Origin: Candidatus Nanoarchaeia archaeon
Lineage (GTDB): Archaea; Nanobdellota; Nanobdellia; SCGC-AAA011-G17; JACPNG01
Length of the DNA stretch: 64,000 nucleotides
Direction: 5' to 3'
Assembly (NCBI GenBank): GCA_028713535.1
Contig: JAQTOC010000003.1
Coordinates: 7,556-71,555 of the forward strand
Shown here piece by piece: positions 7,580-57,403 of the stretch (positions are counted from its first letter, which is position 1; each line of letters begins with the position of its first letter). A program made the translations under genes and the position numbers. The notes below the pieces were generated by a model. The model was not told the DNA's origin. It worked only from the letters and a program-made list of their open reading frames with translations, and did not search any database.

Positions 7580-8401
7580 TTAGTCCAGTGGACTTTTTAT
7601 CTTTTTTATTTGCTCTTGCGAGACATGAGTATAAATTTGTGTGGTGCTTAACTGCGAATGCCCCAGCAGTTCCTGTATCAACCTTATATCTGTCCCGTTC
7701 TCCAGTAAATGTGTAGCAAAGCTGTGCCTAAGCGTGTGGGGTGTAACCCTTTTCTTTATTCCTGCCTTCATGGCAGTGTTCTGGATTATTTTTTGTATGT
7801 TTCTCGTCGTCAAAATATCCCTCCCTTGCCCAGGGAATATCCAAACATTTTCGCTCGGCAGCGTTTGAAGATATCTTTCAAGCTCTTTCAGGACTTTCCC
7901 TCCAACAATTGTCATTCTGTCCTTGCTTCCTTTTCCAGCTTTGACTCTTATTGTTTTTTCCTTGAAATTAATTTCATCGGTTTTTAACCTGACAAGCTCA
8001 GAGACTCGTAACCCCGTGCTGTAAAGCAGCTCGATTATTAATTTGGTTTTTTGGGATTTTGCATTTTTAATCAATAAAAATATTTCATCTCTGCTTAAAA
8101 CTTCCGGGTTTGACTTTGGGATCCTAGGAGTCTTCAAATTAATTATGTTTTTCTTTAAGATTTCATCATAAAAAAACTTCAGTGCACTTTTTTTCAGAGA
8201 AACACTTCTTGGTTTTAGCTTTAAGTCAGATATAATATAGCTCATATAACTTTTAATATCAGATTCAGTCACTTTATCCGGCTCTTTTTTTATATAATCC
8301 AGGAACAGCTTATTGTGCCGCATATAAGAGCTGAGCGTCTCTTTGGAAAAACCCCTTAGCTTTAATTCAACCTCTAGATTTTTTAACAATTTTTCACCCA
8401 A
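7580..8401 (-). CDS. xerA: tyrosine site-specific recombinase, XerA/XerC/XerD family
   Basis: C-terminal catalytic box 'HTLRHSFATHLLENGTDIRLIQELLGHSQLSTTQIYTHV' (R..HxxR..Y), 273 aa, typical of archaeal XerA. Confidence 0.85.
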   Translation of the reverse strand: MGEKLLKNLEVELKLRGFSKETLSSYMRHNKLFLDYIKKEPDKVTESDIKSYMSYIISDLKLKPRSVSLKKSALKFFYDEILKKNIINLKTPRIPKSNPEVLSRDEIFLLIKNAKSQKTKLIIELLYSTGLRVSELVRLKTDEINFKEKTIRVKAGKGSKDRMTIVGGKVLKELERYLQTLPSENVWIFPGQGRDILTTRNIQKIIQNTAMKAGIKKRVTPHTLRHSFATHLLENGTDIRLIQELLGHSQLSTTQIYTHVSQEQIKKIKSPLD

Positions 8402-13260: not shown

Positions 13261-14265
13261 TTATAATTGAGCACTAATAAAATCATGTTCATGTATGTCC
13301 CGAATTGCAGCATAGACTGGCCCAGAAGCGCTTATTTCCTCTATTTTAGGGTATTCTTTGAAGAAATTATCAGACCTGGAAACAGTATCAGAAATAATAA
13401 ATCTGTCCAAACAATCACTTTTTTGGATGGTTTGAGCACTTTCACGGCTTGCTTTACAGTGAGATACCCCGCCTATCACCGTTGCTGCTCCTGCTTCCTT
13501 GCACAGTCTTCCAACATTTAAGATTGTGCTGCCAGTTACAGTTTCATCATCAAAAGTGAACGTAGCTCTTTCTTTTAATGACTTGCCATATAACTCAAGT
13601 CCATAACATTCAATCTCGCTCCCGCTTTTTCTTACCTTTTTTGCATATCCTGTTATGAGATTTATATCTGGATAAACTCTTCTTACTTCAGCTTCTAATG
13701 ATCCAGTCCTGTTATCCATTGCCCCCTTGTCAGGAGCAATCAAAGCGAATTTATCATATTCATTAAACACCGGAGCAAGATGTTCTACCAAGGTTTTTGA
13801 TAATAAGAGATTATAAAATGGCATTCCACAATCTTTTGTTATCTTAGGATTATGGAGATCTACTGCTAAAATTCTGTCAACATAAGCAGCTTTTAGAAAG
13901 TTTATGGTTGCTTTTGCAGATTCAGAATCATTAGTCTCAGTTGGTCTGTCCTGTCTCGCAAACCCAAAATAAGGTATAACCGCAGTGATCCTCGCAGAAC
14001 CAGCACGATGGGCAGAGTCGCAAAAGATCAACAATTGCAGGAGTTTAGTTGACAGCTCTGGCCTGCCCCCGACAGAAAATGTTTTATGAATTGATTGAAT
14101 AACAAAAACATCTTTTCCTTTCATATCCAGAGATGAATCTGGATGTACCCTGAATTCTTCATCGGGAAAGAACATTTCTGTTGCTTCAGCATTGTACCCT
14201 ATCCTTTCACCAAACTTTTTAGAAGAACTTAATGCAAAAATCATCGCATCATCTTTAAATCCCAT
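13261..14265 (-). CDS. prs: ribose-phosphate pyrophosphokinase (PRPP synthetase) family
   Basis: PRPP-binding motif 'FDDETVTGSTILNVGRLCKEAGAATVIGGVSHC'; divalent cation/ribose-5-P site 'PYFGFARQDR'. Confidence 0.85.
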   Translation of the reverse strand: MGFKDDAMIFALSSSKKFGERIGYNAEATEMFFPDEEFRVHPDSSLDMKGKDVFVIQSIHKTFSVGGRPELSTKLLQLLIFCDSAHRAGSARITAVIPYFGFARQDRPTETNDSESAKATINFLKAAYVDRILAVDLHNPKITKDCGMPFYNLLLSKTLVEHLAPVFNEYDKFALIAPDKGAMDNRTGSLEAEVRRVYPDINLITGYAKKVRKSGSEIECYGLELYGKSLKERATFTFDDETVTGSTILNVGRLCKEAGAATVIGGVSHCKASRESAQTIQKSDCLDRFIISDTVSRSDNFFKEYPKIEEISASGPVYAAIRDIHEHDFISAQL

Positions 14266-15251: not shown

Positions 15252-15578
15252 ATGAAAATCAAAACCAAGAACATAGACGTTAATGGAATAAAATTCTACA
15301 TAGAAAAAGATGGAAAAGAAATAGCGAGGGCATACCTCTATCTTATGTATAATGACCTCCATGACAAGCCTTTTGGCTTATTGGAAGATGTTTTTGTTGA
15401 AGAATCATTAAGGGGCCAGGGCATAGGAACAGAGTTATTGAATGAAGTCCTTGGTGAAGCGAGAAAAAGATGCTACAAATTGATTTGTACTAGTCGATAT
15501 TCCAGGCCAAGAGTCCATTCTTTGTATGAAAAACTTGGTTTTAAGGACCATGGAAAAGAATTCAGGATGGATTTTTAG
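15252..15578 (+). CDS. GNAT-family N-acetyltransferase
   Basis: Acetyl-CoA motif 'VEESLRGQGIGTELLNEVLGEARKRCYKL' (Q/RxxGxG/A). Confidence 0.75.
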   Translation: MKIKTKNIDVNGIKFYIEKDGKEIARAYLYLMYNDLHDKPFGLLEDVFVEESLRGQGIGTELLNEVLGEARKRCYKLICTSRYSRPRVHSLYEKLGFKDHGKEFRMDF

Positions 15579-16093
15579 TTTATCTCTAATTTTTTATAAT
15601 TAAACTTCTTTATTTCTTCCTCTATGTCCTTGAAAGTTTTTCCGCAGAGCATTCCGCCAGCCAAGAATTCTTCGTGAGTTACTTCTGCCAAACAGAAATC
15701 AGGCATTTTAAATTTATTTTTCTCTTCCATGCTTTTAAATTCAAAATCAATAACAACCAGCCCCTTTAATGCACCCTGAAAAATATCAATTTCAGCAGTT
15801 CTTCCATTATGCTCATAATAATATCTTAGTTTGTGTGTTTTTTTGCCGTCGATTTTGCTTAAATCATTAAATTCCTCTTCAGTTAGTATTATTGTCTGCT
15901 CGTTTTGATGTGAAGCATCATCAGTAACAGGCTCTTTCTTGGTCATTTCATATTTATTTCCGTTTTTTCTTATCCTTAATGTAGGATGCCTTCTTGATTT
16001 AGGGACATAAACATCAATTATCTCCTTGAATTTGCAATTCTTTAAGCCATCTGGAATTTTCTTTGCCAAAAACGTTCTTTCTAACTCAATCAT
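15575..16093 (-). CDS. CYTH-domain protein (triphosphate tunnel metalloenzyme)
   Basis: N-terminal 'IELERTFL' (ExExK-like) and overall CYTH size; overlaps the upstream nucleotidyltransferase gene by 8 nt. Confidence 0.6.
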   Translation of the reverse strand: MIELERTFLAKKIPDGLKNCKFKEIIDVYVPKSRRHPTLRIRKNGNKYEMTKKEPVTDDASHQNEQTIILTEEEFNDLSKIDGKKTHKLRYYYEHNGRTAEIDIFQGALKGLVVIDFEFKSMEEKNKFKMPDFCLAEVTHEEFLAGGMLCGKTFKDIEEEIKKFNYKKLEIN

Positions 16094-16586
16094 CTTTCAT
16101 GTCCTTTATTTTTTTGATTAAACTTGAGGTAGAATATCCTTCAATTATCTTGATTATGTAAACTTTTCCGCCATATTTTTTAACAGTCTCAGCCTCGATA
16201 CAATTTTCCCCGTACTCAGAGCCGTTTACATGGACATCAGGTTTAACACTTTCAACAAACTTCAAGCAGTCTGTCTCATCAAATAAATTTACATAATCCA
16301 CACATTCAAGAGCAGCAAGCATCCCCGCTCTTGCTGTCTGGTTGTTTAATGGTCTTTTATCCCAGTCCTTATAGCCAATGTGTTTTTTCCATCGTCTTAC
16401 AGAATCATCTGTATTCAAGCCAATGATCAAAACATCTCCTTGTCGCTTAGCTTCTTCTAGATATTTAATGTGCCCATAATGCAAAATGTCAAAAGAACCG
16501 TTGGTTGAAACTATTTTTTTCCCAGCCTTTCTTAATTTATCACAAATCTTAATTATTTCTTCCCTTGTTTTTATTTTATTCTCCAT
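16086..16586 (-). CDS. cytidylyl/adenylyltransferase, RfaE domain II (HldE-C)/TagD-like
   Basis: 'GSFDILHYGHIKYL' (HxGH nucleotidyltransferase motif), 166 aa; operon context with gmhA/gmhB/hldD. Confidence 0.75.
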   Translation of the reverse strand: MENKIKTREEIIKICDKLRKAGKKIVSTNGSFDILHYGHIKYLEEAKRQGDVLIIGLNTDDSVRRWKKHIGYKDWDKRPLNNQTARAGMLAALECVDYVNLFDETDCLKFVESVKPDVHVNGSEYGENCIEAETVKKYGGKVYIIKIIEGYSTSSLIKKIKDMKDD

Positions 16587-17472
16587 TTTTTAATAGCCAC
16601 TTATGATAGTCTTTTACTGCCTCTCTAAATTTCCATTCAGCCTTGAACTTAAGGTATTTTTCAGCTTTTTTTGTGTCTGCCTGCGACAAATTTTGATATT
16701 CTTCATAGGGATTCTCTATATACTCAATTTCAAAATCAGTTTTCATTGCTTCGTTTAAGGCATAAACTATTTCGCTAAAGTTTATTTTTTCTCCAGTGCC
16801 GACATTGTAAACCCCTGAAGGGGCATCTAAAGCCAATAAGTTTGCTCTGACAATGTCCTTGACATAAATCTGGTCTCTTGCCTGTGTCCCTGGCTTGAAC
16901 AGTCTTGGAGTCTCTCCATTCATCATGGTTTTTCTTAAGTGATACACCATTGATGCAGGCCTTCCCTTGTGGCTTTCTCTTGGTCCAAAAACATTAAAGT
17001 ATCTTAAACCAACTATATGCATTTTTTTAAAGTATGTTTCAGCAATCCTGTCCATTTCAATCTTGGATCTTGCATAGTCTGTCTGGGGGTCTTTTTCCTG
17101 GTCTTCTTCCATTGGGCATGGGCCGTTCCCATAAACAGATGCAGATGAAGCATAGACAAGTTTAGCATTGTCTTTTAGTGCAATATTAATGACATTATTG
17201 AATCCTTCAATGTTTTTTTTGAAGGTGTCTCCTCCCTCATATCTTGGGTCAGTTATTGCTGCCTCATGGAATATAACATCGAATTTTTCTCCAAGATCTT
17301 TTTTCTTGCATATATCCCATTCAATAAATCTTCCTTTAAACCCCCTAAGATTTTCTTTTTTCCCAGTAAATAAATTATCAACAACAACAACAACTTCATG
17401 GCCTTGTTTTTCCAGTTCTAAAACAAGATTAGATCCAATAAACCCTGCTCCACCAGTAACGAGACATTTCAT
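16576..17472 (-). CDS. hldD: NAD-dependent sugar epimerase, ADP-L-glycero-D-manno-heptose-6-epimerase-like
   Basis: N-terminal Rossmann 'MKCLVTGGAGFIGSN', catalytic YxxxK 'YARSK', SDR extended family; context. Confidence 0.75.
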   Translation of the reverse strand: MKCLVTGGAGFIGSNLVLELEKQGHEVVVVVDNLFTGKKENLRGFKGRFIEWDICKKKDLGEKFDVIFHEAAITDPRYEGGDTFKKNIEGFNNVINIALKDNAKLVYASSASVYGNGPCPMEEDQEKDPQTDYARSKIEMDRIAETYFKKMHIVGLRYFNVFGPRESHKGRPASMVYHLRKTMMNGETPRLFKPGTQARDQIYVKDIVRANLLALDAPSGVYNVGTGEKINFSEIVYALNEAMKTDFEIEYIENPYEEYQNLSQADTKKAEKYLKFKAEWKFREAVKDYHKWLLKNGE

Positions 17473-17473
17473 A

Positions 17474-18037
17474 TTAATCCCCCTTTAAAATCAGTTCCAC
17501 CGCATTATATAAATCTTTTTCTTTAAAGTCTGGACTGACTTTGTAGCCTCTGTCCTTTTTCCCTGCGTGCCCTGTTTCAACCAGAATTGTTTTGCATCCT
17601 GCATTTTTTCCAGCCAAAATGTCACAAAGATCATCTCCTATCATCCAGGAGTTTTTCAGGTCAATATTGAACTCCTTTTTTGCTTTTAACAGCATCCCTG
17701 GCTTTGGTTTTCTACAACTACAATCCATGTCAAAATCAGGGTGATGCGGGCAAAAATATTCTCCGTCTATCTTGATGTTTTCTTTGTTTAGCTCAGACAT
17801 AAAGTGCTTGTTAAAATCATGAAACTGCTCAAGTGTAAAATAGCCTCTTGCAATTCCAGACTGGTTTGTGATAATTATAACCTTGTATTTGCTTTTGTTT
17901 ATTTTTTTAAGTGCTTCCAATGAATTGGAAATGAAAATCAGGTCTTCTTTCTTATGGAGATAGTCTGTATTTTCATTAATTACTCCATCCCTGTCCAAAA
18001 AAATTGCTTTATTCATTTTTGAATAATTCTTGCTCAA
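17474..18037 (-). CDS. gmhB: D,D-heptose 1,7-bisphosphate phosphatase (HAD family)
   Basis: HAD motif I 'FLDRDGVIN', Zn-binding Cys cluster 'CPHHPDFDMDCSCRKPKPGM' characteristic of GmhB. Confidence 0.85.
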   Translation of the reverse strand: MSKNYSKMNKAIFLDRDGVINENTDYLHKKEDLIFISNSLEALKKINKSKYKVIIITNQSGIARGYFTLEQFHDFNKHFMSELNKENIKIDGEYFCPHHPDFDMDCSCRKPKPGMLLKAKKEFNIDLKNSWMIGDDLCDILAGKNAGCKTILVETGHAGKKDRGYKVSPDFKEKDLYNAVELILKGD

Positions 18038-18584
18038 CTAAGTCGCATATAATATGCCCAATTGTAATGTGTGCTTCCTGTATCCTTGGGGTGTCTGCAC
18101 TTGGAACATTGATTAAAATATCTACCAGCTCTTTCATCTTTCCCCCAGAATCTCCTGTGAATCCAACAATGAAAATATCTTTTTCCTTTGCAGCATTAAT
18201 GGCATTAATCACGTTTTTTGAATTTCCGCTTGTAGAGATTCCAATCAAGACATCGCCTTTAGCCCCAAAAGCCTCAATCTGTTTTGAAAAAATATCATCA
18301 AATGAAAAATCATTTCCTATGCAAGTTAAAACCGAGCTATCTGTAGTTAATGCTAACCCCGGCAGTGGTTTCCTGTTAATTCTGAACCTGTTTACAAATT
18401 CTCCTGCTAGGTGCTGGCAGTCAGCAGCGCTTCCCCCATTGCCGCAGAATAAGACCTTGTTTCCTTTTCTTAATGAGTTAATTATTGTTCTTGCTGTTTC
18501 CTCAATTCTTTCAGTTAAGACCTCGCTTACTTTGAGCTTTAATTCAGAGCTTTCCATAAGCTGTTTTCTTATTGCCCTTTCCAT
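18009..18584 (-). CDS. gmhA: phosphoheptose isomerase (SIS domain)
   Basis: SIS motif 'VLFCGNGGSAADCQHLAGEF', 191 aa. Confidence 0.85.
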   Translation of the reverse strand: MERAIRKQLMESSELKLKVSEVLTERIEETARTIINSLRKGNKVLFCGNGGSAADCQHLAGEFVNRFRINRKPLPGLALTTDSSVLTCIGNDFSFDDIFSKQIEAFGAKGDVLIGISTSGNSKNVINAINAAKEKDIFIVGFTGDSGGKMKELVDILINVPSADTPRIQEAHITIGHIICDLVEQELFKNE

Positions 18585-18687
18585 TTTTTAATGTTAGGGA
18601 TTTGTTTATTTAAAAGTTTATATTTTAAACTAATCAGTTATTTTTCCCTATAATAATCCTTAAATAACTACCCTGCTTACTAATACC

Positions 18688-29796: not shown

Positions 29797-31296
29797 ATGA
29801 AACAGGAATTTTTGAAAGAACTGGTATCTTTTATACAGAACAAAGGATTTATCTGGGGGCCTGAACCAGAGATATATTCTGGATCTGCAGGATTTTATAC
29901 TTATGGTCCTCTTGGAAAATTATTAAAGAACAAAGTTGAAAATTCTGTAAGAAAAGTCTTCCAGTCAAACGGATTATGGGAATTGGAAGCTCCGACAGTA
30001 CTGCCAGATGTTGTTTGGGAAGCCTCAGGCCATCTTAATACCTTTAAGGAAAAAATAATTGAATGTGAAAAATGCAAATCAGTTTTTAGGGCAGATAAAT
30101 TAATAGAAGAAGAACATGACGTTAAGGCTGAAACATTTTCAGACAAGCAGCTCCTTGATTTTATCAAAAAAAATAATGTGCGATGCCCTTCTTGCAAAGG
30201 TTCATTCAAGCCGGAGATAAAAACCCAAAGTTTAATGATGAAAACAACAGTTGCAGGAAAGGATTTTTCATTAAGGCCTGAAACTGCGACAGCAACATAT
30301 CTCCCATACAAGAGATTCCATGATTTCTTCAGGGGAAAAGTTCCTTTTGGAGTGTTCCAGATAGGAAAAGCTTACAGGAATGAGATCTCCCCAAGGCAGC
30401 ATGTTATAAGGTCAAGGGAGTTCACCCAGGCAGAAGGCCAGATATTTATTGATCCCAAGGAAAAAAACAACTGGGAAAAGTATGAGTTAATAAAAGACAC
30501 AAAACTTCCATTATGGACTTACAAACAGCAAAAATCAAATATCCAGCCAAAACTTGTTAAGCTGAATGATTTAGTTAAGTCCAAGGATATTAAAACAAAG
30601 GCATATGCCTGGTGCATCTGGTTGGCATATCAGCAGTATATTTCAATGGGAATTCCCTCTGAAAAAATAAGGTTAAGGCAGCATCATCCTGATGAAAAAG
30701 CATTTTATGCTGATGATGCCTGGGACGTAGAAATAAATCTTAATTCATTTGGATGGACCGAAGTCTGCGGAGTTCATGACCGAACCGATTATGATCTAAA
30801 ACAGCATTCTAAACACTCAAAAACAGAATTGATTGCAAGAAGAGAGGATAATTCTACGTTTGTTCCTCATGTCCTTGAGATAGCATTTGGGACAGACAGG
30901 CCTGTTTTCTCATTGCTTGATATTTTTTACGTAAAAAAGGAAAAGGGCGAAGGTAAAACAATGTTTGAACTGCCTTATAATATTGCTCCAGTTGATGTTT
31001 CAATATTTCCTCTGATGAAAAAACCTGAATTAACAACAATTGCAACAGAAATAAAAGAACAGCTTGAAAAAGAATTTATTGTAGATTACGATGTTTCCGG
31101 AAGCATTGGAAAAAGATATCTGAGAAGTGCAGAATCCGGGACACCATTTGCAATAACCATAGACTATGATTCCATAACAAACAAGGATGTTACAATAAGG
31201 GACCGAGATTCAGAAAAACAGATTAGGGTTAAAATTGAGGAAATTTCAGAAACATTAAGAAAATTCTTGAACAGAGAAATGAGTTTTGGAGATTGA
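29797..31296 (+). CDS. glyS: glycyl-tRNA synthetase, archaeal/eukaryal alpha2 type
   Basis: N-terminus 'GFIWGPEPEIYSGSAGFYTYGPLG', class II motifs 2/3 'FQIGKAYRNEISPR', C-terminal anticodon-binding domain; CxxC...CxxC insertion. Confidence 0.92.
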   Translation: MKQEFLKELVSFIQNKGFIWGPEPEIYSGSAGFYTYGPLGKLLKNKVENSVRKVFQSNGLWELEAPTVLPDVVWEASGHLNTFKEKIIECEKCKSVFRADKLIEEEHDVKAETFSDKQLLDFIKKNNVRCPSCKGSFKPEIKTQSLMMKTTVAGKDFSLRPETATATYLPYKRFHDFFRGKVPFGVFQIGKAYRNEISPRQHVIRSREFTQAEGQIFIDPKEKNNWEKYELIKDTKLPLWTYKQQKSNIQPKLVKLNDLVKSKDIKTKAYAWCIWLAYQQYISMGIPSEKIRLRQHHPDEKAFYADDAWDVEINLNSFGWTEVCGVHDRTDYDLKQHSKHSKTELIARREDNSTFVPHVLEIAFGTDRPVFSLLDIFYVKKEKGEGKTMFELPYNIAPVDVSIFPLMKKPELTTIATEIKEQLEKEFIVDYDVSGSIGKRYLRSAESGTPFAITIDYDSITNKDVTIRDRDSEKQIRVKIEEISETLRKFLNREMSFGD

Positions 31297-31330
31297 AAAG
31301 ATTTTTAACTTGTTTTTTTCCAGTTATTTT

Positions 31331-32557
31331 ATGAATTGTAAGTTTGGCACATCAGGGATAAGAGGCCCATACCCGGAGTCTATAAATGAAGAAGTTTTAT
31401 TTAGGTTAGGTGTTGTTCTATCCAGAGAATTTAACCTAGTTTATGTTGGAATGGATATCAGAGATTCCTCTGAGTCTCTTTTAAATTCGCTAATTAAAGG
31501 ATTATTAACAAATAAGATTGAGGTGATTAATTTAGGTTTAGCTCCCGTAGGTGCACTTGCCTCACTTTCAAAAAATAGCCTGGGAGTTTACATAACTGCA
31601 AGCCACAACCCATTTGATCATAATGGCTTTAAGATATTTTACAAAGGTGGAGAGGTTTATGGAGACCTTGAAAAACAAATTGAAAATAATCTTAATTCAA
31701 TTATCCCTCCTGAAAGTAAAACCCTTGGAATTCTAAAAACAATGGATTGGAAATGGGCATATAAAAAATCACTGCCTTTTTTAGGGATGGGTTCAGCAAA
31801 AATTGTTTTGGCATGCAATGGTTCAGCAAAAGTTGTTTTACCCACACTCTTATCAGAATTAGGTTATGAATTAATATGTTTAAATGAAGAAATTCCGATT
31901 GAGCAATATGACCGAAAAATTATCAGCAAAAAAATAAGAGAAACAAACTCAGATATATGTTTTTTGCTGGATGCAGATGGAGATCGTCTTATTGTTTTTG
32001 ATGAAAACGGAGAAGAAATCCAAAAAGATATTCAATTAAATCTCGCACTTGATTTTTTAAAGCCAGCAAAGCCTGTTTTGACAGTTGAATCTTCGCATTC
32101 TTCCACAAAGATAATGAGTGATAGGATTATTACCGCAGTCGGAAGCAAGAACGTTGGCTCTATAATGATGCAGTTAAATTCCAGCTTTGGAGGAGAGCCT
32201 GCCGGAGAATTTATTTATTCTTCATTAAGCTATTGCCCGGATGGAATTGCTACAGCGCTTCTTTTTTTAGAAATATTAAAACAAGGCAAGATCTCTAACT
32301 TAAGGAAAAAATACGAAATTCCAAAGATATACAGAGAAAAATATTTAGTTTTAGACAGGGATAGATCTATGGAAATCATCAAAAAGAGCATTATCCCATA
32401 TTTTAACAATGTTAGTCTCATAGATGGAGTGAGAATCGAACAATCTGATGGATTCGCATTGATAAGACCAAGTGGAACAGAATCTTTAATAAGGCTGACC
32501 TATGAGAATTTTAATGATATAGAAACAGTTAAAAAGATTATTGAAGAATCAATTTAA
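31331..32557 (+). CDS. phosphoglucomutase/phosphomannomutase (alpha-D-phosphohexomutase)
   Basis: 'FGTSGIRG' N-terminus, active-site phosphoserine loop 'ITASHNPFDHNGFK', metal loop 'DADGDR'; ORF track starts at 31286 but in-frame ATG 31331 matches the family N-terminus. Confidence 0.85.
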   Translation: MNCKFGTSGIRGPYPESINEEVLFRLGVVLSREFNLVYVGMDIRDSSESLLNSLIKGLLTNKIEVINLGLAPVGALASLSKNSLGVYITASHNPFDHNGFKIFYKGGEVYGDLEKQIENNLNSIIPPESKTLGILKTMDWKWAYKKSLPFLGMGSAKIVLACNGSAKVVLPTLLSELGYELICLNEEIPIEQYDRKIISKKIRETNSDICFLLDADGDRLIVFDENGEEIQKDIQLNLALDFLKPAKPVLTVESSHSSTKIMSDRIITAVGSKNVGSIMMQLNSSFGGEPAGEFIYSSLSYCPDGIATALLFLEILKQGKISNLRKKYEIPKIYREKYLVLDRDRSMEIIKKSIIPYFNNVSLIDGVRIEQSDGFALIRPSGTESLIRLTYENFNDIETVKKIIEESI

Positions 32558-48212: not shown

Positions 48213-49403
48213 ATGGTGTCTGGTAATAAAGGGAAATCTACGAATAAGGATAGCCCTAAAAATAAAAATCCACGAAAGTTTTATGTTACAGATTTACTAA
48301 GAAACTTTTCAAATCATTCTGTTGCAGATATCATGCATCAGGTAAAATATGAGCTTAAAACCCAGCCAGATTACGCAATTGATGCATTCGAAGAACAATG
48401 GAAATACCTTGAAGAACAGAGAGCTAGAGCAAAGGGAGAACACGTAAATTCTTTGGATTTAGCTAATCGATTGCTTGGGATGGAACAGGGTCTTGCTTAT
48501 AAAAATCTAAATTTTAAAAATTTAAGAGAAGAACTGAGTAAAACTACTGATAAAAAAAAGCAGGAAAAATTGGAAAAGGATATGTTGGTTCTTCTTGTAA
48601 ATGCAGTCCATGATAAACAACAAGAGATTGGGAGAATTGCTCAGGAAGCAAAGCTGGATAAACCCGGTGGAAAATATCTTCAAGGAACGATTGAAGATCT
48701 AATAAAATACAATCAGCTTAACTTTGATTACCAAGGCAAAAAGAAGTTTGATACTGTTGGTGCTCAAAAGTATATTGAGGAACAACTAAGGGCGGGAAAA
48801 TCCAAGGAAGAGATTGCAGATTCAATGTATAAAAATATGGATAAGTACGAAAAAGATTCTGGTTTGCTTTACAGGATGAAAGGCGTAGGAGAATTCTTTA
48901 GGGCATTGAGGCATCCAAAAAGAAATATTTTTGACAGGACCAGGCGTAAACTTGGCTTATCAAATTATTCTGGTGGTGGAAAAGAATACTTAAATGAGGT
49001 AACTGAATTGTTAAAAGAAAACAAAGGGATTATTTCTGATAAAGTTGAAGATTCGGTTAACAAAATAAAAAAAGCAGAGGCTTACAAGGGTGTAGTCGAA
49101 CTTCTTCATGAAGGAGGATATATGAAAAGCAAGTCAGACTACCACACTTTGTCTGATGCTATAAGAGTTTATGGCAAAACTCACAAAAAGGAGATGAAAA
49201 AGCACATGTTAGAAGATTTGGCAGCAGCAATATTGTTCTGGGCTGCAGGAATTGTCGCTTTGGTAAGGGCAAAAGGATCACCAATCACAGGAGCAGTTGT
49301 AATATCAAATATTAATTTAGACCCCAATAATATCTTGTTTATAATTGGGTTCTTATGCTTGATTGTAGGTACAGCGGTGTTCTTGCACAGCAGACATAAA
49401 TAA
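48213..49403 (+). CDS. hypothetical protein with C-terminal TM anchor (396 aa)
   Basis: Charged helical body, two C-terminal hydrophobic helices. Confidence 0.45.
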   Translation: MVSGNKGKSTNKDSPKNKNPRKFYVTDLLRNFSNHSVADIMHQVKYELKTQPDYAIDAFEEQWKYLEEQRARAKGEHVNSLDLANRLLGMEQGLAYKNLNFKNLREELSKTTDKKKQEKLEKDMLVLLVNAVHDKQQEIGRIAQEAKLDKPGGKYLQGTIEDLIKYNQLNFDYQGKKKFDTVGAQKYIEEQLRAGKSKEEIADSMYKNMDKYEKDSGLLYRMKGVGEFFRALRHPKRNIFDRTRRKLGLSNYSGGGKEYLNEVTELLKENKGIISDKVEDSVNKIKKAEAYKGVVELLHEGGYMKSKSDYHTLSDAIRVYGKTHKKEMKKHMLEDLAAAILFWAAGIVALVRAKGSPITGAVVISNINLDPNNILFIIGFLCLIVGTAVFLHSRHK

Positions 49404-49529: not shown

Positions 49530-52500
49530 TTATAATTTAATGCTTAACTTTTCAGAATATTCTTTTCCGTCTATTTTTACTTTAATCGAGAATGTGTACC
49601 ATCCGCCTGTTTCAAATCTATCTAAATTAATGACTAACTGATTATTGTTTTTTATTTCAACATCAACCTTAAACATGTTTGCCGTAGCTTCAGCAGACTC
49701 AACATCTGTGTTGAGGTCAATTGTTAATTCCTTTCCATTAGAAGAATATTTTTTAATTAGTTTTTCATTGCATTTAGTATTCTCACAGCCAAACACACAT
49801 TCCTGGCTTGTTTTTAATTCATTGCTTTCGCATTTTATGATGCTTTTTTTATCATCGCTGCATTTAAGTCCTCCTTCCTTTAAGCCACTGCATCCATCTT
49901 CTTTTGCTTCCTCAGTTTTTTCAGCAGCAACCTCGCTTTTTTTCTCAAAGACATCGCCATGATCCCCTTCACTCCTGTAATCTTCTTTTCCTTTTCCAGC
50001 TTCAAGATAAATGAATCCGGTCTGGTAATATATTTCTGCTCTAAGCTCACTGTTCTGAACAGAATCCAATAATGCCTGCAATTCTTTTACGCTTTTTGTG
50101 TTTTTAATCTCGCTTAACTTAGTCTCTTTCTCTTCATCAGTCAGGGCAGTTATTCCCTTGTTCCTTAAATTTTCTACCTTTTTCTCTTCAAGATAGGAAG
50201 ATACATTTTCATAATTGCTAAGTGAGTCAAGACTAAAGCTTCTTGTGTCTAGCCAGCAGTCTCCAAGCGCAATCCCGTTGCTGTCTTTTCCGCAGCTTCC
50301 AGCTCTTCTCCAATAATCGTTCTCAGAATTTCCATCTGGATCATTAACAGAACAAATTCTCCTTATGCTGTCGGTGCTTGATCCAACTCCAGTTATGGTG
50401 TCCAGACTTTCTTCAATCTTTGATTTTTCTTCAGGAACACACTCTTCTTCATTTGTAATTTCTTTTGTTGCTTCTTCAGCAACAGCGTCGTCCTGCAGTT
50501 TATTTAATGCATAATCTGTTGTTACCCTTCCAAATCCGCATTCAGTTACCTCATTTATTTCAATGCACACCTCTTCAAAGCCTTCCCCTGCCACAGTATC
50601 AACATTCTTTGTGACATAGCCTCCATATTCTATCTGGCCTTTTGATTCGCTTGTGCTTCCTTCATCCCCAAATGTAACATAATGCCTTCTTCCAGTGCTG
50701 CTGTCTCTTAAATAGACTCTGTAGCTTAACTGTGTTGGTGCATTTGCTTCCTGTGTTGTTCCTGCATATATGTGGAAGAACACATTGTATTCATTTGCTC
50801 CAAATTTCTCACTGTATGTTTTTGAGCTTAATGTTGCTATGTATTGTGGTGGATCTCTTGGATTTACCAGTTTTGTTATAAACTCTCCAAGATTTGGTAT
50901 TGATCCAGTAACAACACCCTTGCATAACTCCATTTTTATCTGGGTTAATTTTGTTGATTTGTAAGATTGATCTACAATTGTTCCATACTCGCTTGTGAAA
51001 AATTCAACACTTTTCAATGCGGTTTCATAGCTGCTTGAGAAGTCTAGGTATTCTCCCCCGCCATCTGTGCTACTGCTGCTAATCATATTTCCATTGAAGA
51101 AATTGCTGATAAATTGGGTTGCTCCTTCTGCTTCTCTCCAGAAAACATCACAAATGTAGATGCTTTGTATTTTGTCGCATAAACCTACACTCTTTCCGTC
51201 TTCTTTTTGTGTTGTCAAGCAATCTTTTCCTGATTGGAATATAGATCTTATGTTCTTTAACCCAGCTAATATTCCTGTTGCACAAACAGGGAGTATGTCT
51301 CCAGAACCTTGTGGCAATACAATAGATCCGATAATGCCGGATCTTACTACATCCTTGACATACCAGTTGCCGCCTGCATTAAATCTTGAGACAGGGCATA
51401 CGATTGGATCGCATACATTGAATAACATTTTGCAGTCAGAGACACTCATCGAATCTGTGCAGTGGCCTATTGCTTTGTTTAGTTCTTTGTTTGCAGCATT
51501 TGTTTCGCAGTTAAACCATTTTCCGTCTTTGCTTTTTATTCTTTGTCCTTGTGTGCAGGTCTTTAATGAGTTTACATATGTCTGATACTTTAATAATTTG
51601 GAGGGTTCTTTTTCCTTTAGGAAACTGCTGCTCTCTAAACTGATGTCATCACCAGTGCATAATTTTCCGTCAGGGCCAACATTGTATGAACTGATTTCTC
51701 CTGCGCTTCCGTCAGCAAGTTGTTTTGTGACTTTTAAGTATACTCCTTTCTCATAAGGAACGCAGTAGGGTTTTCCGTCAGAGTAGAATTCTGCCGCAGC
51801 ATTCTTGTCATAATCTTTTCTTTCCCCTTTGTTGTCAGTTTCTTTTAGTACTAAATAACAGCCATTACTTGATGTGTATAATGAAGAAGCGCCAACAATC
51901 TTATTTAAATTCCCGCTGACATCCACACGATTAAGATCATTTATTGTTTGTACAGTTTTTCCTTCGTTGTCTACAACAAACCCAACCCCCTTTCCATTTT
52001 CAATTACAACCTCTGATATCGAGCCAGTTATTTCTTCGCATCCAACAGGTTTTTTATCTGTATTTGCCTTCCATTCTGACTGTCTTTTCTTGAAAGTCTC
52101 TGAACTTTGTGATTCAAGGCTGCTGTAAACAGTGTCGAATATTTTCTTTTTGTTCTCGTCGCTCTTTATGTCCTCTCCGAATAGGCTTTTAACCTCTGAA
52201 TATATCTCATTCTTTTTCTGCACGCTTTTTATTAAAGTATCCTTTTGTTTTTTTATTGTTTCAAAATATGCCTTTTCTTTTCCGCTGGTTCCATCTGGTT
52301 TATTATTGAGTATTGAGTTTAAGAAGAGATATTCTTTAACTTCATCGCTGTCAACCGTTAGTTCCTTTCCATTTTCATCAATTTTTGCTTCTTTTGCAAG
52401 ATCGCTATAAGCTTGTGTAGAATAAATGTTCCCATCTTTTAATGCATCATTGAAATCCTCTATTTTCTCATCTACCTCATCAATAATATTCTCTGCAAAC

Positions 52501-55481: not shown

Positions 55482-57403
55482 GTTAGTTTTGGATATTCAA
55501 AAAATATATTTTCTGGATATCTTGAAAGTTCATCTGCAAATGCTGCAGGGTCTTCATATATTGTGTCTGAGTTGTCATAAACCGCGTAGAATATTATTTT
55601 GCTTGAACTCTTTAATTCATCCCTGTTTATGCTAAAGCTGAAATCTCCTCCGCCAATAAGATTTTGTTTAAAGCTCTGTTCAGGTATTGTATTCTCTATG
55701 CATTCGCTCTTTGTCTTCCCAAGCAAACCCAAGATCCCATCAGGGATATCAACACATTTTGTGAATTTTCTTTCTGGCATTGTGATTGTTTTCCCTTCTT
55801 CAGACATAACATAAGAGTTTATGCTGTATTCTCCAGGAATTATTTTGATTTTTCCTGTTGGATTGCTTAGGACTGTGTTGTAATTATCACTTTTAATCTC
55901 AAACATAACCTGTTCATCCTCTACCTCTCGTGTTGCTCCTGTATTCTTGTTGATTAATTGTACCTCATAATCTAGGTAGTAATAAGGTTCTAGATAGACT
56001 GTGATTTCATTTTCCCTTGTTGTTGAGAGTATCTGGCTTCCTACTCCAAGGTCCTTGTTCTCTGCGACAATCTCCCCATTGACGCAGCTTGGGAAATAAC
56101 TTGTCATTGTTCCGTCGCTTTCCCCGATGTAGCAGTTGCTTACACCGCAGTTATAAGACACCTGCGCAGGAATTTCTTCAAACGTTTCAATGTCTAGTGT
56201 TCTCACATTGACTTCCTTGTTCCTTGAGTTGCATATTGTGTCCTTGAAGTTTGAAACATTCAAGTTTGTTATTGTGTCCACTCTTGGCTGGTTTTTTTCT
56301 ATAACAACCATCGTGGCAAATTGGAATATATCTCCATCAGCCATCAATGTAACTAAAACCGGATATTTTATATCATACGCAAAGTTGTAATTATTTATGC
56401 AGACCATTCCGGATAGAATTTGATTTATTTCACTCCCACCAGCAGCAGAGCCCTTTGCAATTAATAAGTCTCCTTCCCTTGGCTGGACCTCAATTTCAAA
56501 TGGCCAGGTTTCTAAGTACCTTAAATTTACATTAATATCATATTGTTTCTTTAAAGCAGACCACTCGAAATATTTTTCTGTATTTTCATAATTTGTTCCC
56601 TTTATCTTTATGTTTGGGATGTTTAGTTCTATTATTTTTTTAAGTTTAGTAATTATATCATCTACAAACCATGTTTTTACCCCGCAATTAAACTCAGTTC
56701 CAGAATACGGGATATCCTCATATACAGTTAGCATATCAATTGTTTTTTCCTCAAGATAATATTCTTTGCTTTCATCATCAAAAATTTGCCTTGCTACCTT
56801 GTATAATTCTCCAAGGTTTGAATTTACAGAAGTACTGAACTCATCCAGCTTGTATTCGTTGTCCCCTTTCTTTATGGTAACTGGCATGTCCAAACCAACA
56901 CCTATTTTCTTGTCCTGGATGGTTATGTCCACTCTTTTCTCTCCAGTATGGATAGCATACCCTTGGAAATCTGTGAAATTACTAAGACACAATTCCAATG
57001 CGCTTTCAATGAATAATTTTAAGTCGGATTCCATATCAGTTATTGCAGGATAGTTTGTTTTATCAACATTGTTTGCTTTTTTGTAGTACCAATATGGAAC
57101 TTTTGCGTTTCCTGTGGTTAATGCATTTGAAAATTTATTGAAGTCAGAGGCAGGGATGCTATCTTCTTCAACAACAAGGTAACCACCCTGCAAACCAATA
57201 ATCCTCGACCCAATTAGTGTTGTTCTTGCAAGACAGCCCTCTATGTTGCTTCTTACCGCCTCGACTTCTTCACCACCTTTTTCCCCAGAAATAATCTCTG
57301 TACCCTTTTCTAGGATAGAATCCCTGAAAACAAGGAATATAGCAACAAGTACTACCAATATAATACCGATGATGACAAACAGTGAAACCTGGCCTCTTTT
57401 CAT
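55478..57403 (-). CDS. large surface protein (641 aa) with archaeal class III (prepilin-like) signal peptide
   Basis: N-terminus 'MKRG|QVSLFVIIGIILVVLVAIFLVF' fits [KR]G/A-Q + hydrophobic prepilin-peptidase substrate pattern; remainder beta-rich with Cys pairs. Confidence 0.7.
   Translation of the reverse strand: MKRGQVSLFVIIGIILVVLVAIFLVFRDSILEKGTEIISGEKGGEEVEAVRSNIEGCLARTTLIGSRIIGLQGGYLVVEEDSIPASDFNKFSNALTTGNAKVPYWYYKKANNVDKTNYPAITDMESDLKLFIESALELCLSNFTDFQGYAIHTGEKRVDITIQDKKIGVGLDMPVTIKKGDNEYKLDEFSTSVNSNLGELYKVARQIFDDESKEYYLEEKTIDMLTVYEDIPYSGTEFNCGVKTWFVDDIITKLKKIIELNIPNIKIKGTNYENTEKYFEWSALKKQYDINVNLRYLETWPFEIEVQPREGDLLIAKGSAAGGSEINQILSGMVCINNYNFAYDIKYPVLVTLMADGDIFQFATMVVIEKNQPRVDTITNLNVSNFKDTICNSRNKEVNVRTLDIETFEEIPAQVSYNCGVSNCYIGESDGTMTSYFPSCVNGEIVAENKDLGVGSQILSTTRENEITVYLEPYYYLDYEVQLINKNTGATREVEDEQVMFEIKSDNYNTVLSNPTGKIKIIPGEYSINSYVMSEEGKTITMPERKFTKCVDIPDGILGLLGKTKSECIENTIPEQSFKQNLIGGGDFSFSINRDELKSSSKIIFYAVYDNSDTIYEDPAAFADELSRYPENIFFEYPKLT

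Follow-up and report, generated by a model that had tools for sequence, protein, structure and literature searches.

Four of the five steps leading to ADP-L-glycero-beta-D-manno-heptose are encoded side by side in an archaeal genome, with no gene for the sugar kinase among them and a CYTH gene at their end. Could such a cluster serve a working pathway, where would it have come from, and does the CYTH protein take part in it? The stretch of DNA analysed here (hereafter the window) covers 64 kb of an 81-kb contig. Its host is a DPANN archaeon, Woesearchaeales-like and of the small symbiont type; it is named 'Candidatus Nanoarchaeia archaeon' at NCBI, and an archaeal host, as originally proposed, is confirmed by the genes for TFB, tRNA-intron endonuclease, S3Ae, S8e, P0 with its insertion domain, Dph2 and LonB found in the window. 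The explanation that we favour, and to which we give as a whole a probability of about 60%, is that an intact cluster serves these four steps, that genes for the kinase and the heptosyltransferase lie elsewhere, and that the CYTH protein is a bystander. The enzyme identities in this explanation rest on the results of search tools, while the remainder is what we infer from them.

Arrangement of the gene cluster

The ORF listing of the window confirms five closely packed minus-strand genes at positions 15575-18584. The unit is headed by gmhA, encoding a D-sedoheptulose-7-phosphate isomerase with a SIS domain (18009..18584, 191 aa). It is followed by gmhB, for a D-glycero-beta-D-manno-heptose-1,7-bisphosphate 7-phosphatase of the HAD-IIIA type (17474..18037, from a TTG start), an hldD-type SDR gene for an ADP-glycero-manno-heptose 6-epimerase-like protein (16576..17472, 298 aa), hldC, for a standalone heptose-1-phosphate adenylyltransferase of the RfaE domain II type (16086..16586, 166 aa), and lastly the gene for a NeuTTM-like CYTH protein, or triphosphate tunnel metalloenzyme (TTM; 15575..16093, 172 aa). 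All five reading frames are intact and the catalytic motifs are present.

Overlaps are found at the CYTH/hldC (8 nt), hldC/hldD (11 nt) and gmhB/gmhA junctions (8 nt, or 29 nt if the TTG start is used), and a 1-nt gap separates hldD from gmhB; the description of five overlapping genes thus holds for three junctions, the remaining one being an abutment. The true start of gmhB is more likely the ATG at 18016 (180 aa) than the TTG, because the N-termini of GmhB from E. coli and from a related archaeal cluster (locus L012) agree with it. The four heptose genes and the CYTH gene appear to form a single transcription unit. Its promoter is tentatively presumed, from reading the sequence, to lie in the upstream intergenic region (18585..18660, minus strand), where A/T-rich elements resembling a TATA box (tttaaaatataaac and cttttaaataaac) occur some 25-55 nt 5' of the gmhA ATG in a genome of 35% GC.

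Identity of the heptose enzymes

The four enzymes named in the original prediction proved to be correctly identified, as the NCBIfam families and PDB matches are all those of the heptose pathway and far beyond chance. GmhA exceeds the cut-off of TIGR00441 (219.5 bits against 209.45), matches PF13580 (E 9e-31) and has B. pseudomallei GmhA as its top PDB match (2XBL, E 5.5e-61). It is annotated at NCBI as D-sedoheptulose 7-phosphate isomerase (MDD5177930), where the heptose operon genes of the window were already annotated. GmhB exceeds the cut-offs of both NF006506 (beta-heptose-1,7-bisphosphate 7-phosphatase; 192.2 bits against 178) and TIGR00213 (167.4 bits against 149.6) and matches E. coli GmhB (3L8E, E 1e-34); alignment to the latter displays the expected zinc cluster (C-x-H...C-x-C) and the DxDGV motif (DxDGT/V). 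HldD narrowly misses the cut-off of TIGR02197 (269.2 bits, E 4e-80, against 274.6), scoring there about 150 bits over GalE, and its top PDB matches are the AGME structures of H. pylori (3SXP, 1e-50) and E. coli (1EQ2, 2e-39). HldC likewise misses the cut-off of TIGR02199, rfaE_dom_II (163.6 bits, E 2.5e-48, against 181.5), with the next specific family, TagD, about 120 bits lower at 45.7 bits, and matches B. pseudomallei HldC (5X9Q, E 3e-28). Since HldD and HldC fall just under their equivalog cut-offs, we infer the substrates of these two.

The nucleotidyltransferase motif claimed for HldC is present, as HYGH together with (I)xxGxSTS. As far as the commentary PMC11461863 describes the (F/L)xxGxSTT motif, Arg at position 5 ('STTR5') confers promiscuity towards CTP and UTP. 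The window protein (I147-I-E-G-Y151-S-T-S), which belongs to the standalone 'HENase' subgroup of that account, has Tyr in place of this Arg, and its nucleotide is for this reason predicted to be adenine.

In the proposed pathway, GmhA would convert sedoheptulose-7-phosphate to D-glycero-D-manno-heptose-7-phosphate, an anomeric kinase (the step not encoded in the window) would produce heptose-1,7-bisphosphate, GmhB would remove the 7-phosphate, HldC would form ADP-D,D-heptose, and HldD would epimerise it at C6. The bacterial pathway of E. coli, B. pseudomallei and H. pylori comprises GmhA, HldE or HldA plus HldC, GmhB and HldD. The window encodes recognisable homologues of GmhA, GmhB, HldC and HldD that keep the motifs for catalysis and metal binding; its nucleotidyltransferase is a free-standing HldC, like that of Burkholderia, and not part of an HldE. 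What sets the window apart from the bacterial systems is the absence of a kinase, whether HldA or HldE domain I, from the operon and the 64 kb, the absence of GT9, an archaeal host without LPS, and a CYTH gene appended to the operon.

Related clusters and horizontal transfer

The view of this pathway as a bacterial one for LPS or S-layer glycans, implying horizontal acquisition by the archaeon, is unsupported or goes too far. Woesearchaeota, Nanoarchaeota and Methanosarcinales widely carry the same heptose genes, and functional archaeal NDP-heptose enzymes have been described (Tang et al. 2024, Science 385:678, as presented in the commentary PMC11461863). The window HldC falls within an archaeal clade, together with that of L012, in a crude NJ tree, and the GC content of the operon (0.357) is like that of its surroundings (0.33-0.39). 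We therefore replace the claim by a more limited one: inter-domain transfer, if any, would be old, and the recent event would be shuffling among DPANN archaea.

The archaeal clusters compared (L010, L012, L015, L016, L021, L023, L052 and L089, from the three groups named above) comprise the same enzyme families along with a PfkB-type HldA, usually a GT9 and often AglB/STT3 nearby; the window lacks all three and, unlike them, carries a CYTH gene downstream. The order is STT3-GT2-DUF2304-GT4-gmhA-PfkB-gmhB-hldD-hldC-GT9 in L012 and STT3-GT2-DUF2304-GT9-gmhA-x-PfkB-gmhB-hldC in L010 and L011, and that of the window (gmhA ... gmhB-hldD-hldC) is the L012 order minus PfkB (hldA) and GT9. Of about 14 distinct archaeal loci, about 11 have PfkB adjoining hldC or within about 2 kb of it, and the same linkage is found in L107-L109. 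Three archaeal loci are without PfkB: the window, the syntenic contig of a sister genome (L001), and L036. GmhB and HldC are fused in two of these three, in opposite orders (HldC::GmhB in L001).

Comparison with the sister contig points to a composite history. Flanking orthologues (63-83%), CYTH (79%) and HldD (72%) are well conserved between the two, whereas identity is limited to 43% for HldC and 46% for GmhB; the window HldC is 82% identical to P0122, the HldC of the complete L012 cluster, and the HldC proteins of window and sister fall in different clades of the crude NJ tree. The window cluster would derive from the standard Woesearchaeal one by trimming and have a mosaic make-up. The phosphatase, nucleotidyltransferase and epimerase have been retained in both lineages despite replacement, which speaks for a function still in place.

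This standard cluster would be gmhA-hldA(PfkB)-gmhB-hldD-hldC-GT9, located beside the oligosaccharyltransferase AglB and supplying glycan heptosylation. Heptosylated surface glycans, part of the original prediction, are made plausible by the AglB/STT3 and GT9 genes of relatives, but the window itself offers no glycosyltransferase for them.

The missing kinase

The absence of a kinase from the operon, pointed out at the start, extends to the whole 64 kb by three methods: Pfam and NCBIfam scans, which took in essentially every ORF of 110 aa or longer, found no PfkB or GHMP kinase, tblastn with three archaeal HldA proteins found no HldA (best E 0.6), and neither did a profile HMM built from 115 archaeal-type HldA sequences against six-frame ORFs (best E 1.4). 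These searches cover 64 of the 81 kb of the contig, and the MAG may be incomplete. No GT9 heptosyltransferase, STT3 or any other glycosyltransferase occurs within the window. Among the best 120 homologues of an archaeal HldA (down to 46% identity), none has an accession from the block of this MAG (MDD5177xxx) or of the sister genome (MDD5253xxx), and none bears the organism name of either.

These absences would also fit a true loss of the kinase (along with gmhA in the sister lineage), with GmhB, HldC and HldD either using heptose-1,7-bisphosphate or heptose-1-phosphate derived from a host organism or persisting as a decaying remnant. We hold this to be unlikely overall, though it is the most serious competitor. 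A host-derived substrate would suit the episymbiotic lifestyle of DPANN archaea, and the GmhB-HldC fusions in two of the three PfkB-less loci channel specifically the segment from bisphosphate to ADP-heptose. On the other hand, gmhA is intact in the window and over its equivalog cut-off, and would be useless without a kinase; we know of no precedent for the uptake of sugar bisphosphates. Heptose genes are often dispersed in bacterial genomes, many hldC loci of Chlamydiae and Verrucomicrobia being solitary, so the local absence of a kinase is weak evidence. As for decay, purifying selection acts on HldD with the strength seen for a ribosomal protein (dN/dS of about 0.07 between window and sister genome, with dS saturated, equal to L10/P0 and GNAT), which suggests that the heptose pathway is probably in use in the window lineage. 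Neither the kinase nor the heptosyltransferase is present at the locus; that they are encoded elsewhere in the genome is an assumption, but the most likely one. The sister locus lacks gmhA as well as the kinase, an observation that counts against the favoured explanation and could reflect progressive loss.

The CYTH protein

The CYTH protein exceeds the cut-off of PF01928 (30.2 bits against 23.2) and matches the inorganic triphosphatase NE1496 in the PDB (E 2e-8; a family profile brings this to 2e-12). Its AF2 model (pLDDT 91.4), with a predicted eight-stranded tunnel fold, has 2FBL/3TYP as top Foldseek match (TM 0.66/0.76). It thus belongs to the same superfamily as NeuTTM (NE1496, 2FBL/3TYP) and the archaeal SaTTM (Saci_0718, 7NS8-7NSF), keeping the TTM residues E3, E5, R40, R42, K52, K88, R90, E101/D103 and D116/E118, and the family alignment (A1) shows no variation in the acidic and basic residues of the tunnel. 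Identity to NeuTTM is 25-28%, family function being predicted from sequence and fold. In contrast to NeuTTM, the family has a near-invariant Thr for the Lys of the hallmark ExExK (ExE[KR]T) and is extended at the C-terminus by about 30 aa, with a conserved AGGxxCGK loop. The discriminators HF (class IV cyclase) and WxRxR (ThTPase; PMC8233210) are absent from its sequence. It is predicted to be a phosphatase-type, NeuTTM-like TTM acting on inorganic or nucleoside triphosphates.

The overlap with hldC recurs in L001 (4 nt), so that joint expression of CYTH and the heptose genes is almost certain in both lineages and co-transcription in the window is probable; this is also compatible with a functional link. 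The original prediction found no assigned role for CYTH in the pathway, and rightly so, but the link it implied between the two finds no support beyond the sister genome, the only other place where CYTH adjoins heptose genes. No heptose gene accompanies CYTH at seven or more other loci of the family for which the sequence extends 0.7 kb or further upstream (none occurs over the 0.7-10 kb upstream in L003, L094-L098, L100 and L103), the neighbours being GGDEF/VWA in L003 and DUF2238/GatB in L006. Conversely, in about 14 archaeal hldC loci no CYTH lies within 10 kb of hldC except in L001. The family, a Woesearchaeal one of strong conservation and wide distribution, has 1359 homologues (E <= 0.001), the best 120 of which are 64-79% identical; the match at rank 120 is still 65% identical, compared with 53% at the end of the HldC list, which includes bacterial sequences, and this difference in fall-off suggests a wider distribution for CYTH than for the heptose genes. 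With its heptose neighbourhood limited to the window and its sister, CYTH is probably a bystander, its co-transcription being attributable to genome compaction and lineage-specific synteny rather than to action on heptose intermediates.

Could it instead be a non-orthologous anomeric kinase, or hydrolyse a (poly)phosphate by-product and so pull the HldC reaction? TTM-fold enzymes such as Vtc4 are able to transfer the gamma-phosphate of ATP. The gene sits directly after hldC, translationally coupled, in both kinase-less sister lineages, and the family differs from classic TTMs in the altered ExE[KR]T motif and the family-specific extension, whose near-invariant AGGxxCGK loop is followed by a helix. 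We nevertheless consider such a role improbable, given the family's loci without heptose genes and a distribution that seems much wider than theirs; nor is there a CYTH in the sequence compared for L036, the third locus without a kinase. Moreover, HldC releases PPi whereas NeuTTM-type enzymes prefer PPPi, the residue at position 153 of the Walker-A-like motif varies (S/T/K/A/V/D) and there is no P-loop fold, and we found no literature linking CYTH to heptose metabolism.

More doubtful still is a bypass by a divergent alpha-D-phosphohexomutase encoded 13 kb from the operon (31286-32557; PGM/PMM superfamily, all four domains), which would turn heptose-7-phosphate into heptose-1-phosphate via a bisphosphate intermediate and make a kinase unnecessary. 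Even the best-matching family, archaeal GlmM, is a poor fit to the protein (230 bits, with a cut-off of 439), but a housekeeping GlmM/PMM role is enough to account for the gene, which is unlinked to the operon. Phosphohexomutases normally give alpha-1-phosphates, whereas NCBIfam assigns HldC and GmhB to the beta-pathway type, and the bypass would leave GmhB superfluous, yet the window has retained it and relatives have it fused to HldC. Membership of the enzymes in another sugar-nucleotide pathway (mannose, glycerol-phosphate or other) is least likely of all, for although HldC and HldD lie slightly under their cut-offs and one close HldC homologue is called glycerol-3-phosphate cytidylyltransferase by the JGI pipeline, heptose families are by far the best match for all four proteins, TagD scores far below rfaE_dom_II, and close homologues cluster with PfkB HldA and GT9 heptosyltransferases.

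An archaeal ADP-heptose pathway being already known, the cluster described here is an ordinary addition to it, with minor curiosities.

Identity and organization of the heptose genes

The four enzymes that the original prediction had assigned to the heptose cluster appear to be correctly named, according to their best NCBIfam families, their best PDB matches and their aligned motifs. The first gene, gmhA (18009-18584, minus strand), encodes a sedoheptulose-7-phosphate isomerase of the ADP-heptose pathway, scoring 219.5 bits against TIGR00441 (cut-off 209.45) and matching Burkholderia pseudomallei GmhA (PDB 2XBL) with an E-value of 5.5e-61. The product of gmhB (17474-18037, minus strand, with a start probably at the ATG at 18016) scores 192.2 bits against NF006506 (cut-off 178) and carries the features of the 7-phosphatase, as its DxDGV motif and its Cys-His-Cys-Cys zinc site both line up with those of Escherichia coli GmhB (3L8E); among the NCBIfam models, it scores higher on the beta-anomer family than on the alpha one. 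The third gene (16576-17472, minus strand) encodes an HldD-type short-chain dehydrogenase/reductase (SDR; TIGR02197, 269.2 bits for a cut-off of 274.6, E-value 4e-80), in which the GxxGxxG and S/Y/K signatures of SDR enzymes are visible as GGAGFIGS, SSASVYG and YARSK, and whose top PDB matches are the AGME structures 3SXP (Helicobacter pylori) and 1EQ2 (E. coli). The fourth (16086-16586, minus strand) codes for a standalone HldC-type nucleotidyltransferase with HYGH and S-T-S motifs, for which TIGR02199 is the best match (163.6 bits, equivalog cut-off 181.5) and Burkholderia pseudomallei HldC (5X9Q, E-value 3e-28) the top PDB match. HldD and HldC thus fall below their equivalog cut-offs, yet in each case the heptose family is more than 100 bits ahead of the next NCBIfam family, and the best solved-structure matches of all four enzymes are the cognate heptose enzymes of B. 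pseudomallei, E. coli and H. pylori. The last gene (15575-16093, minus strand) encodes a CYTH-domain protein (PF01928, 30.2 bits, cut-off 23.2). NCBI already annotates the cluster, with names such as D-sedoheptulose 7-phosphate isomerase, adenylyltransferase/cytidyltransferase family protein and CYTH domain-containing protein.

The five genes almost certainly form one transcription unit, judging from junctions that leave no room for internal promoters (overlaps of 8 nt between the CYTH gene and hldC, 11 nt between hldC and hldD and 8 nt between gmhB and gmhA, and a 1-nt gap between hldD and gmhB) and from an A/T-rich, TATA-like stretch upstream of gmhA. As for the product of the pathway, a passage of PMC11461863 associates an Arg at position 5 of the (F/L)xxGxSTT motif with CTP/UTP promiscuity. 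The HldC examined here reads I-I-E-G-Y151-S-T-S at this motif, with Y151 instead of Arg, and its expected product would be ADP-heptose.

The archaeal host

That the host is an archaeon, as first proposed, is borne out by the genes that the window carries for TFB, tRNA-intron endonuclease, S3Ae, S8e, S15/S13N, Dph2, ZPR1 and an archaeal LonB, together with one for ribosomal protein P0 with its insertion domain. The window has a GC content of 35% and is rich in orphan ORFs, and its proteins are deposited at NCBI as MDD5177907-982, from an 81,330-bp contig of Candidatus Nanoarchaeia archaeon. Three of the loci compared (L002, L105 and L106) all come from the sequencing run SRR22315509, which contains both the window organism and a syntenic sister about 75% identical to it (GCA_028714095.1), so that a single sample harbours two related Nanoarchaeia populations.

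Some of the other ORFs deserve mention. One of them (1983 aa; 49530-55481, minus strand) has as its only recognizable part an SLT lytic transglycosylase/glucosaminidase-like domain at about residues 605-792, and may be a surface protein attacking the cell wall of a host; a 641-aa orphan (55478-57403) comes after it. Beside a tRNA-Leu gene, a 396-aa orphan (48213-49403, plus strand) weakly matches a plasmid replication DNA-binding protein family (E-value 1e-4, 22 bits for a cut-off of 85), which may mark an integrated element or be a chance match.

Heptose clusters in related archaea

All the homologues of the window HldC among the matches listed are standalone proteins of about 160 aa, and the closest of them (82% identity) belongs to L012, an archaeal locus with the order STT3/AglB-GT2-DUF2304-GT4-gmhA-PfkB-gmhB-hldD-hldC-GT9-radical SAM. 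The heptose genes of this locus are in the same order as those of the window, but L012 has a PfkB kinase gene between gmhA and gmhB, and the heptosyltransferase gene (GT9) that follows hldC has its place taken by the CYTH gene in the window. A second related locus, L010, has the order STT3-GT2-DUF2304-GT9-gmhA-x-PfkB-gmhB-hldC. In both (L010 1-5029; L012 1-4956 and 8524-14724), the heptose genes have next to them an STT3/AglB of very large size that carries fused rotamase (PPIase) domains, as well as GT2, GT4, GT9, DUF2304 and several B12-binding radical-SAM enzymes; the region looks like a dedicated locus for a heptose-containing glycan.

A GTDB-wide scan, annotated by tblastn, yielded about 14 distinct archaeal hldC loci, from Woesearchaeota, Nanoarchaeota and Methanosarcinales; the best match to the window HldC was 68% identical in this database, where the window genome is not a species representative. 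The PfkB gene adjoins hldC or lies within about 2 kb of it in about 11 of these loci. Besides the window, two archaeal loci are kinase-less. The first is the sister contig L001 (GCA_028714095.1, 509 kb), where hldD is followed by an HldC::GmhB fusion and then by the CYTH gene, with gmhA absent; in the second, a Woesearchaeota locus (L036), hldD and a GmhB::HldC fusion lie beside sulfate-activation genes and sulfotransferases. The two fusions (L001 6958-8004, 348 aa; L036 9470-10453, 327 aa) have opposite domain orders, belong to different Woesearchaeota/Nanoarchaeia lineages and are both found in loci with no adjacent PfkB kinase. The sulfate-activation set of the Woesearchaeota locus is a full one (L036 1323-7666: CysN/C-like, CysD-like, APS kinase and CysQ-like, plus two sulfotransferases), which suggests that this organism makes sulfated glycans.

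Probable gene replacement within the cluster

Synteny between the window and the sister contig extends over more than 16 kb, with orthologues 63-83% identical (integrase 83%, GNAT 81%, CYTH 79%, PadR 76%, L10 73%, HldD 72%). Within this block, HldC (43%), GmhB (46%) and the Prs protein (encoded at 13261-14265; 33%) are far more divergent, and their low identity indicates a probable replacement of these genes in place by distant homologues. In a crude neighbour-joining tree of HldC, the window sequence clusters with those of L012, L014, L010 and L015, and that of L001 with other Nanoarchaeota. It therefore seems that hldD and the CYTH gene are vertically inherited neighbours, and that at least one of the two lineages has had its hldC and gmhB replaced. 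The integrase of the block, a tyrosine recombinase of the phage-integrase family (7580-8401, minus strand), is its most conserved protein, and is more likely an XerA-type chromosomal recombinase than the integrase of a mobile element.

The horizontal acquisition of the cluster that had been proposed is not supported, given the grouping of the window HldC in the tree and the composition of the operon, whose GC content shows no anomaly and so gives no hint of a recent horizontal transfer. Deeper in the tree, archaeal HldC sequences are intermingled with bacterial ones, and inter-domain transfer is part of the history of the HldC family, not a feature of the window locus.

The missing kinase

The kinase step, already noted as missing from the operon, is missing from the whole 64-kb window. 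Neither a PfkB (HldA or HldE domain I) nor a GHMP kinase (HddA, for the alpha route) was found by Pfam and NCBIfam scans of about 65 ORFs (practically all those of at least 110 aa), and no HldA was detected when three archaeal HldA proteins served as tblastn queries (best E-value 0.6) or with a profile HMM of 115 archaeal-type HldA sequences run against the six-frame ORFs of the window with all filters off (best E-value 1.4). In the same scans, none of the window ORFs matched GT9 (PF01075), STT3 or any further glycosyltransferase family, and tblastn with two archaeal GT9 proteins gave nothing better than an E-value of 0.59. Among the best 120 HldA homologues (down to 46% identity), none bears the organism name Candidatus Nanoarchaeia archaeon or an accession from the block of the window genome (MDD5177907-982) or of its sister (located by its CYTH protein, MDD5253737), and two kinase matches found only in Logan (P0260 and P0249) derive from other samples.

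The pathway appears to be in use. HldD has a dN/dS of about 0.07 between the two kinase-less lineages (the window and L001), equal to that of ribosomal P0 and GNAT, a value that is semi-quantitative as dS is saturated (above 2). The phosphatase, nucleotidyltransferase and epimerase have also been kept in both lineages through gene replacement. Together, this constraint and this retention argue for a working pathway, and so for a supply of heptose-1,7-bisphosphate, which would come most economically from a kinase encoded elsewhere in the genome.

Far less probable, at about 5%, is that a Woesearchaeales subgroup makes ADP-heptose with neither a PfkB nor a GHMP kinase, the CYTH protein phosphorylating heptose-7-phosphate at the anomeric position or otherwise completing the pathway. 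This reading would draw on the translational coupling of the CYTH gene to hldC, on the altered ExExT motif of its product and on a glycine-rich C-terminal loop resembling a phosphate-binding one. As for the Prs-like gene (13261-14265), it can be dismissed as an alternative C1-phosphoryl donor, being a genuine ribose-phosphate diphosphokinase (TIGR01251, 147.6 bits, cut-off 113) separated from the heptose operon by GNAT, PadR and membrane-protein genes. The window also encodes an alpha-D-phosphohexomutase (31286-32557, plus strand) with all four PGM/PMM domains and a poor fit to archaeal GlmM (230 bits for a cut-off of 439), flanked by a class II aminoacyl-tRNA synthetase gene and a tRNA-Ala gene, with an HIT-family gene next.

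The CYTH protein

The CYTH protein belongs to a large family (1359 homologues with E-values of 0.001 or less), the best 120 of which are 64-79% identical to it and, where named, come from Woesearchaeota or Nanoarchaeota. Its AlphaFold2 model (pLDDT 91.4) has eight main strands, in keeping with the tunnel fold expected from its superfamily profile, and the top 25 Foldseek matches to the model are all TTM/CYTH proteins. The nearest characterized relative is the inorganic triphosphatase NeuTTM, both by sequence (E-value 2e-8, or 2e-12 with the family profile) and by fold (TM-scores of 0.66/0.76 to the model). Residues lining the tunnel are invariant or nearly so (E3, E5, R40, R42, K52, K88, R90, E101/D103, D116/E118). 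The N-terminal hallmark of the superfamily, ExExK (PMC8233210), is replaced by E3-L-E5-R-T7: across 40 members both Glu are invariant and the Lys site is a near-invariant Thr, giving ExE[KR]T as the motif of the Woesearchaeal family in our alignment. Neither the HF that marks class IV cyclases nor the WxRxR of thiamine triphosphatases (PMC8233210) is present in the window protein. The similarity to NeuTTM and the conserved basic and acidic tunnel residues lead us to predict that it is a triphosphatase. Unlike NeuTTM, the family has a C-terminal extension of about 30 aa, which carries a near-invariant AGGxxCGK loop and, after it, a helix; its GGxxCGK[ST] has the formal look of a Walker A motif but is not a true P-loop, since the Ser/Thr site varies and the protein ends only about 20 residues further on.

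The CYTH gene is adjacent to heptose genes only in the window and in the sister contig. Heptose genes are absent beside it in L003-L007 and L094-L103, where its neighbours vary (GGDEF/VWA in L003, DUF2238/GatB in L006, for example), and all seven metagenomic loci that extend at least 0.7 kb upstream of it, one of them 75% identical, are free of heptose genes (these come from a scan of 11 mostly short loci, enough for a test of the upstream neighbour but too few for statistics). Conversely, no archaeal hldC locus other than the window and L001 was found to contain a CYTH gene, and nothing relevant linking CYTH proteins, or Woesearchaeota, with heptose was found in the literature. The adjacency of the CYTH gene and hldC is therefore a peculiarity of one small lineage. 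With a neighbourhood conserved in these two contigs only, the link with the heptose pathway raised in the original prediction is not supported; a role of any kind in this pathway is very unlikely, and we treat the CYTH gene as a probable co-transcribed bystander of the heptose genes.

Implications

As it stands, the window cluster matters little, being one more DPANN example, because archaeal NDP-heptose genes have already been documented (Tang et al. 2024, as cited in a passage of PMC11461863) and those of this genome were annotated automatically. If the CYTH protein did supply the kinase step, it would have a catalytic role new to its superfamily, and a major agonist of innate immunity would be made by a new route; a useful small point is that the Woesearchaeal CYTH family is very conserved and has an atypical active-site motif. 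The position of the standard cluster in these archaea, beside the oligosaccharyltransferase AglB and a GT9, suggests that archaeal protein or surface glycans contain heptose, and the heptose genes have been exchanged and rearranged among DPANN, with loss of the kinase from the locus and GmhB-HldC fusions in both orders. Were the complete genome really kinase-less, how an episymbiont would obtain heptose bisphosphate would be a question of interest for DPANN-host metabolism.
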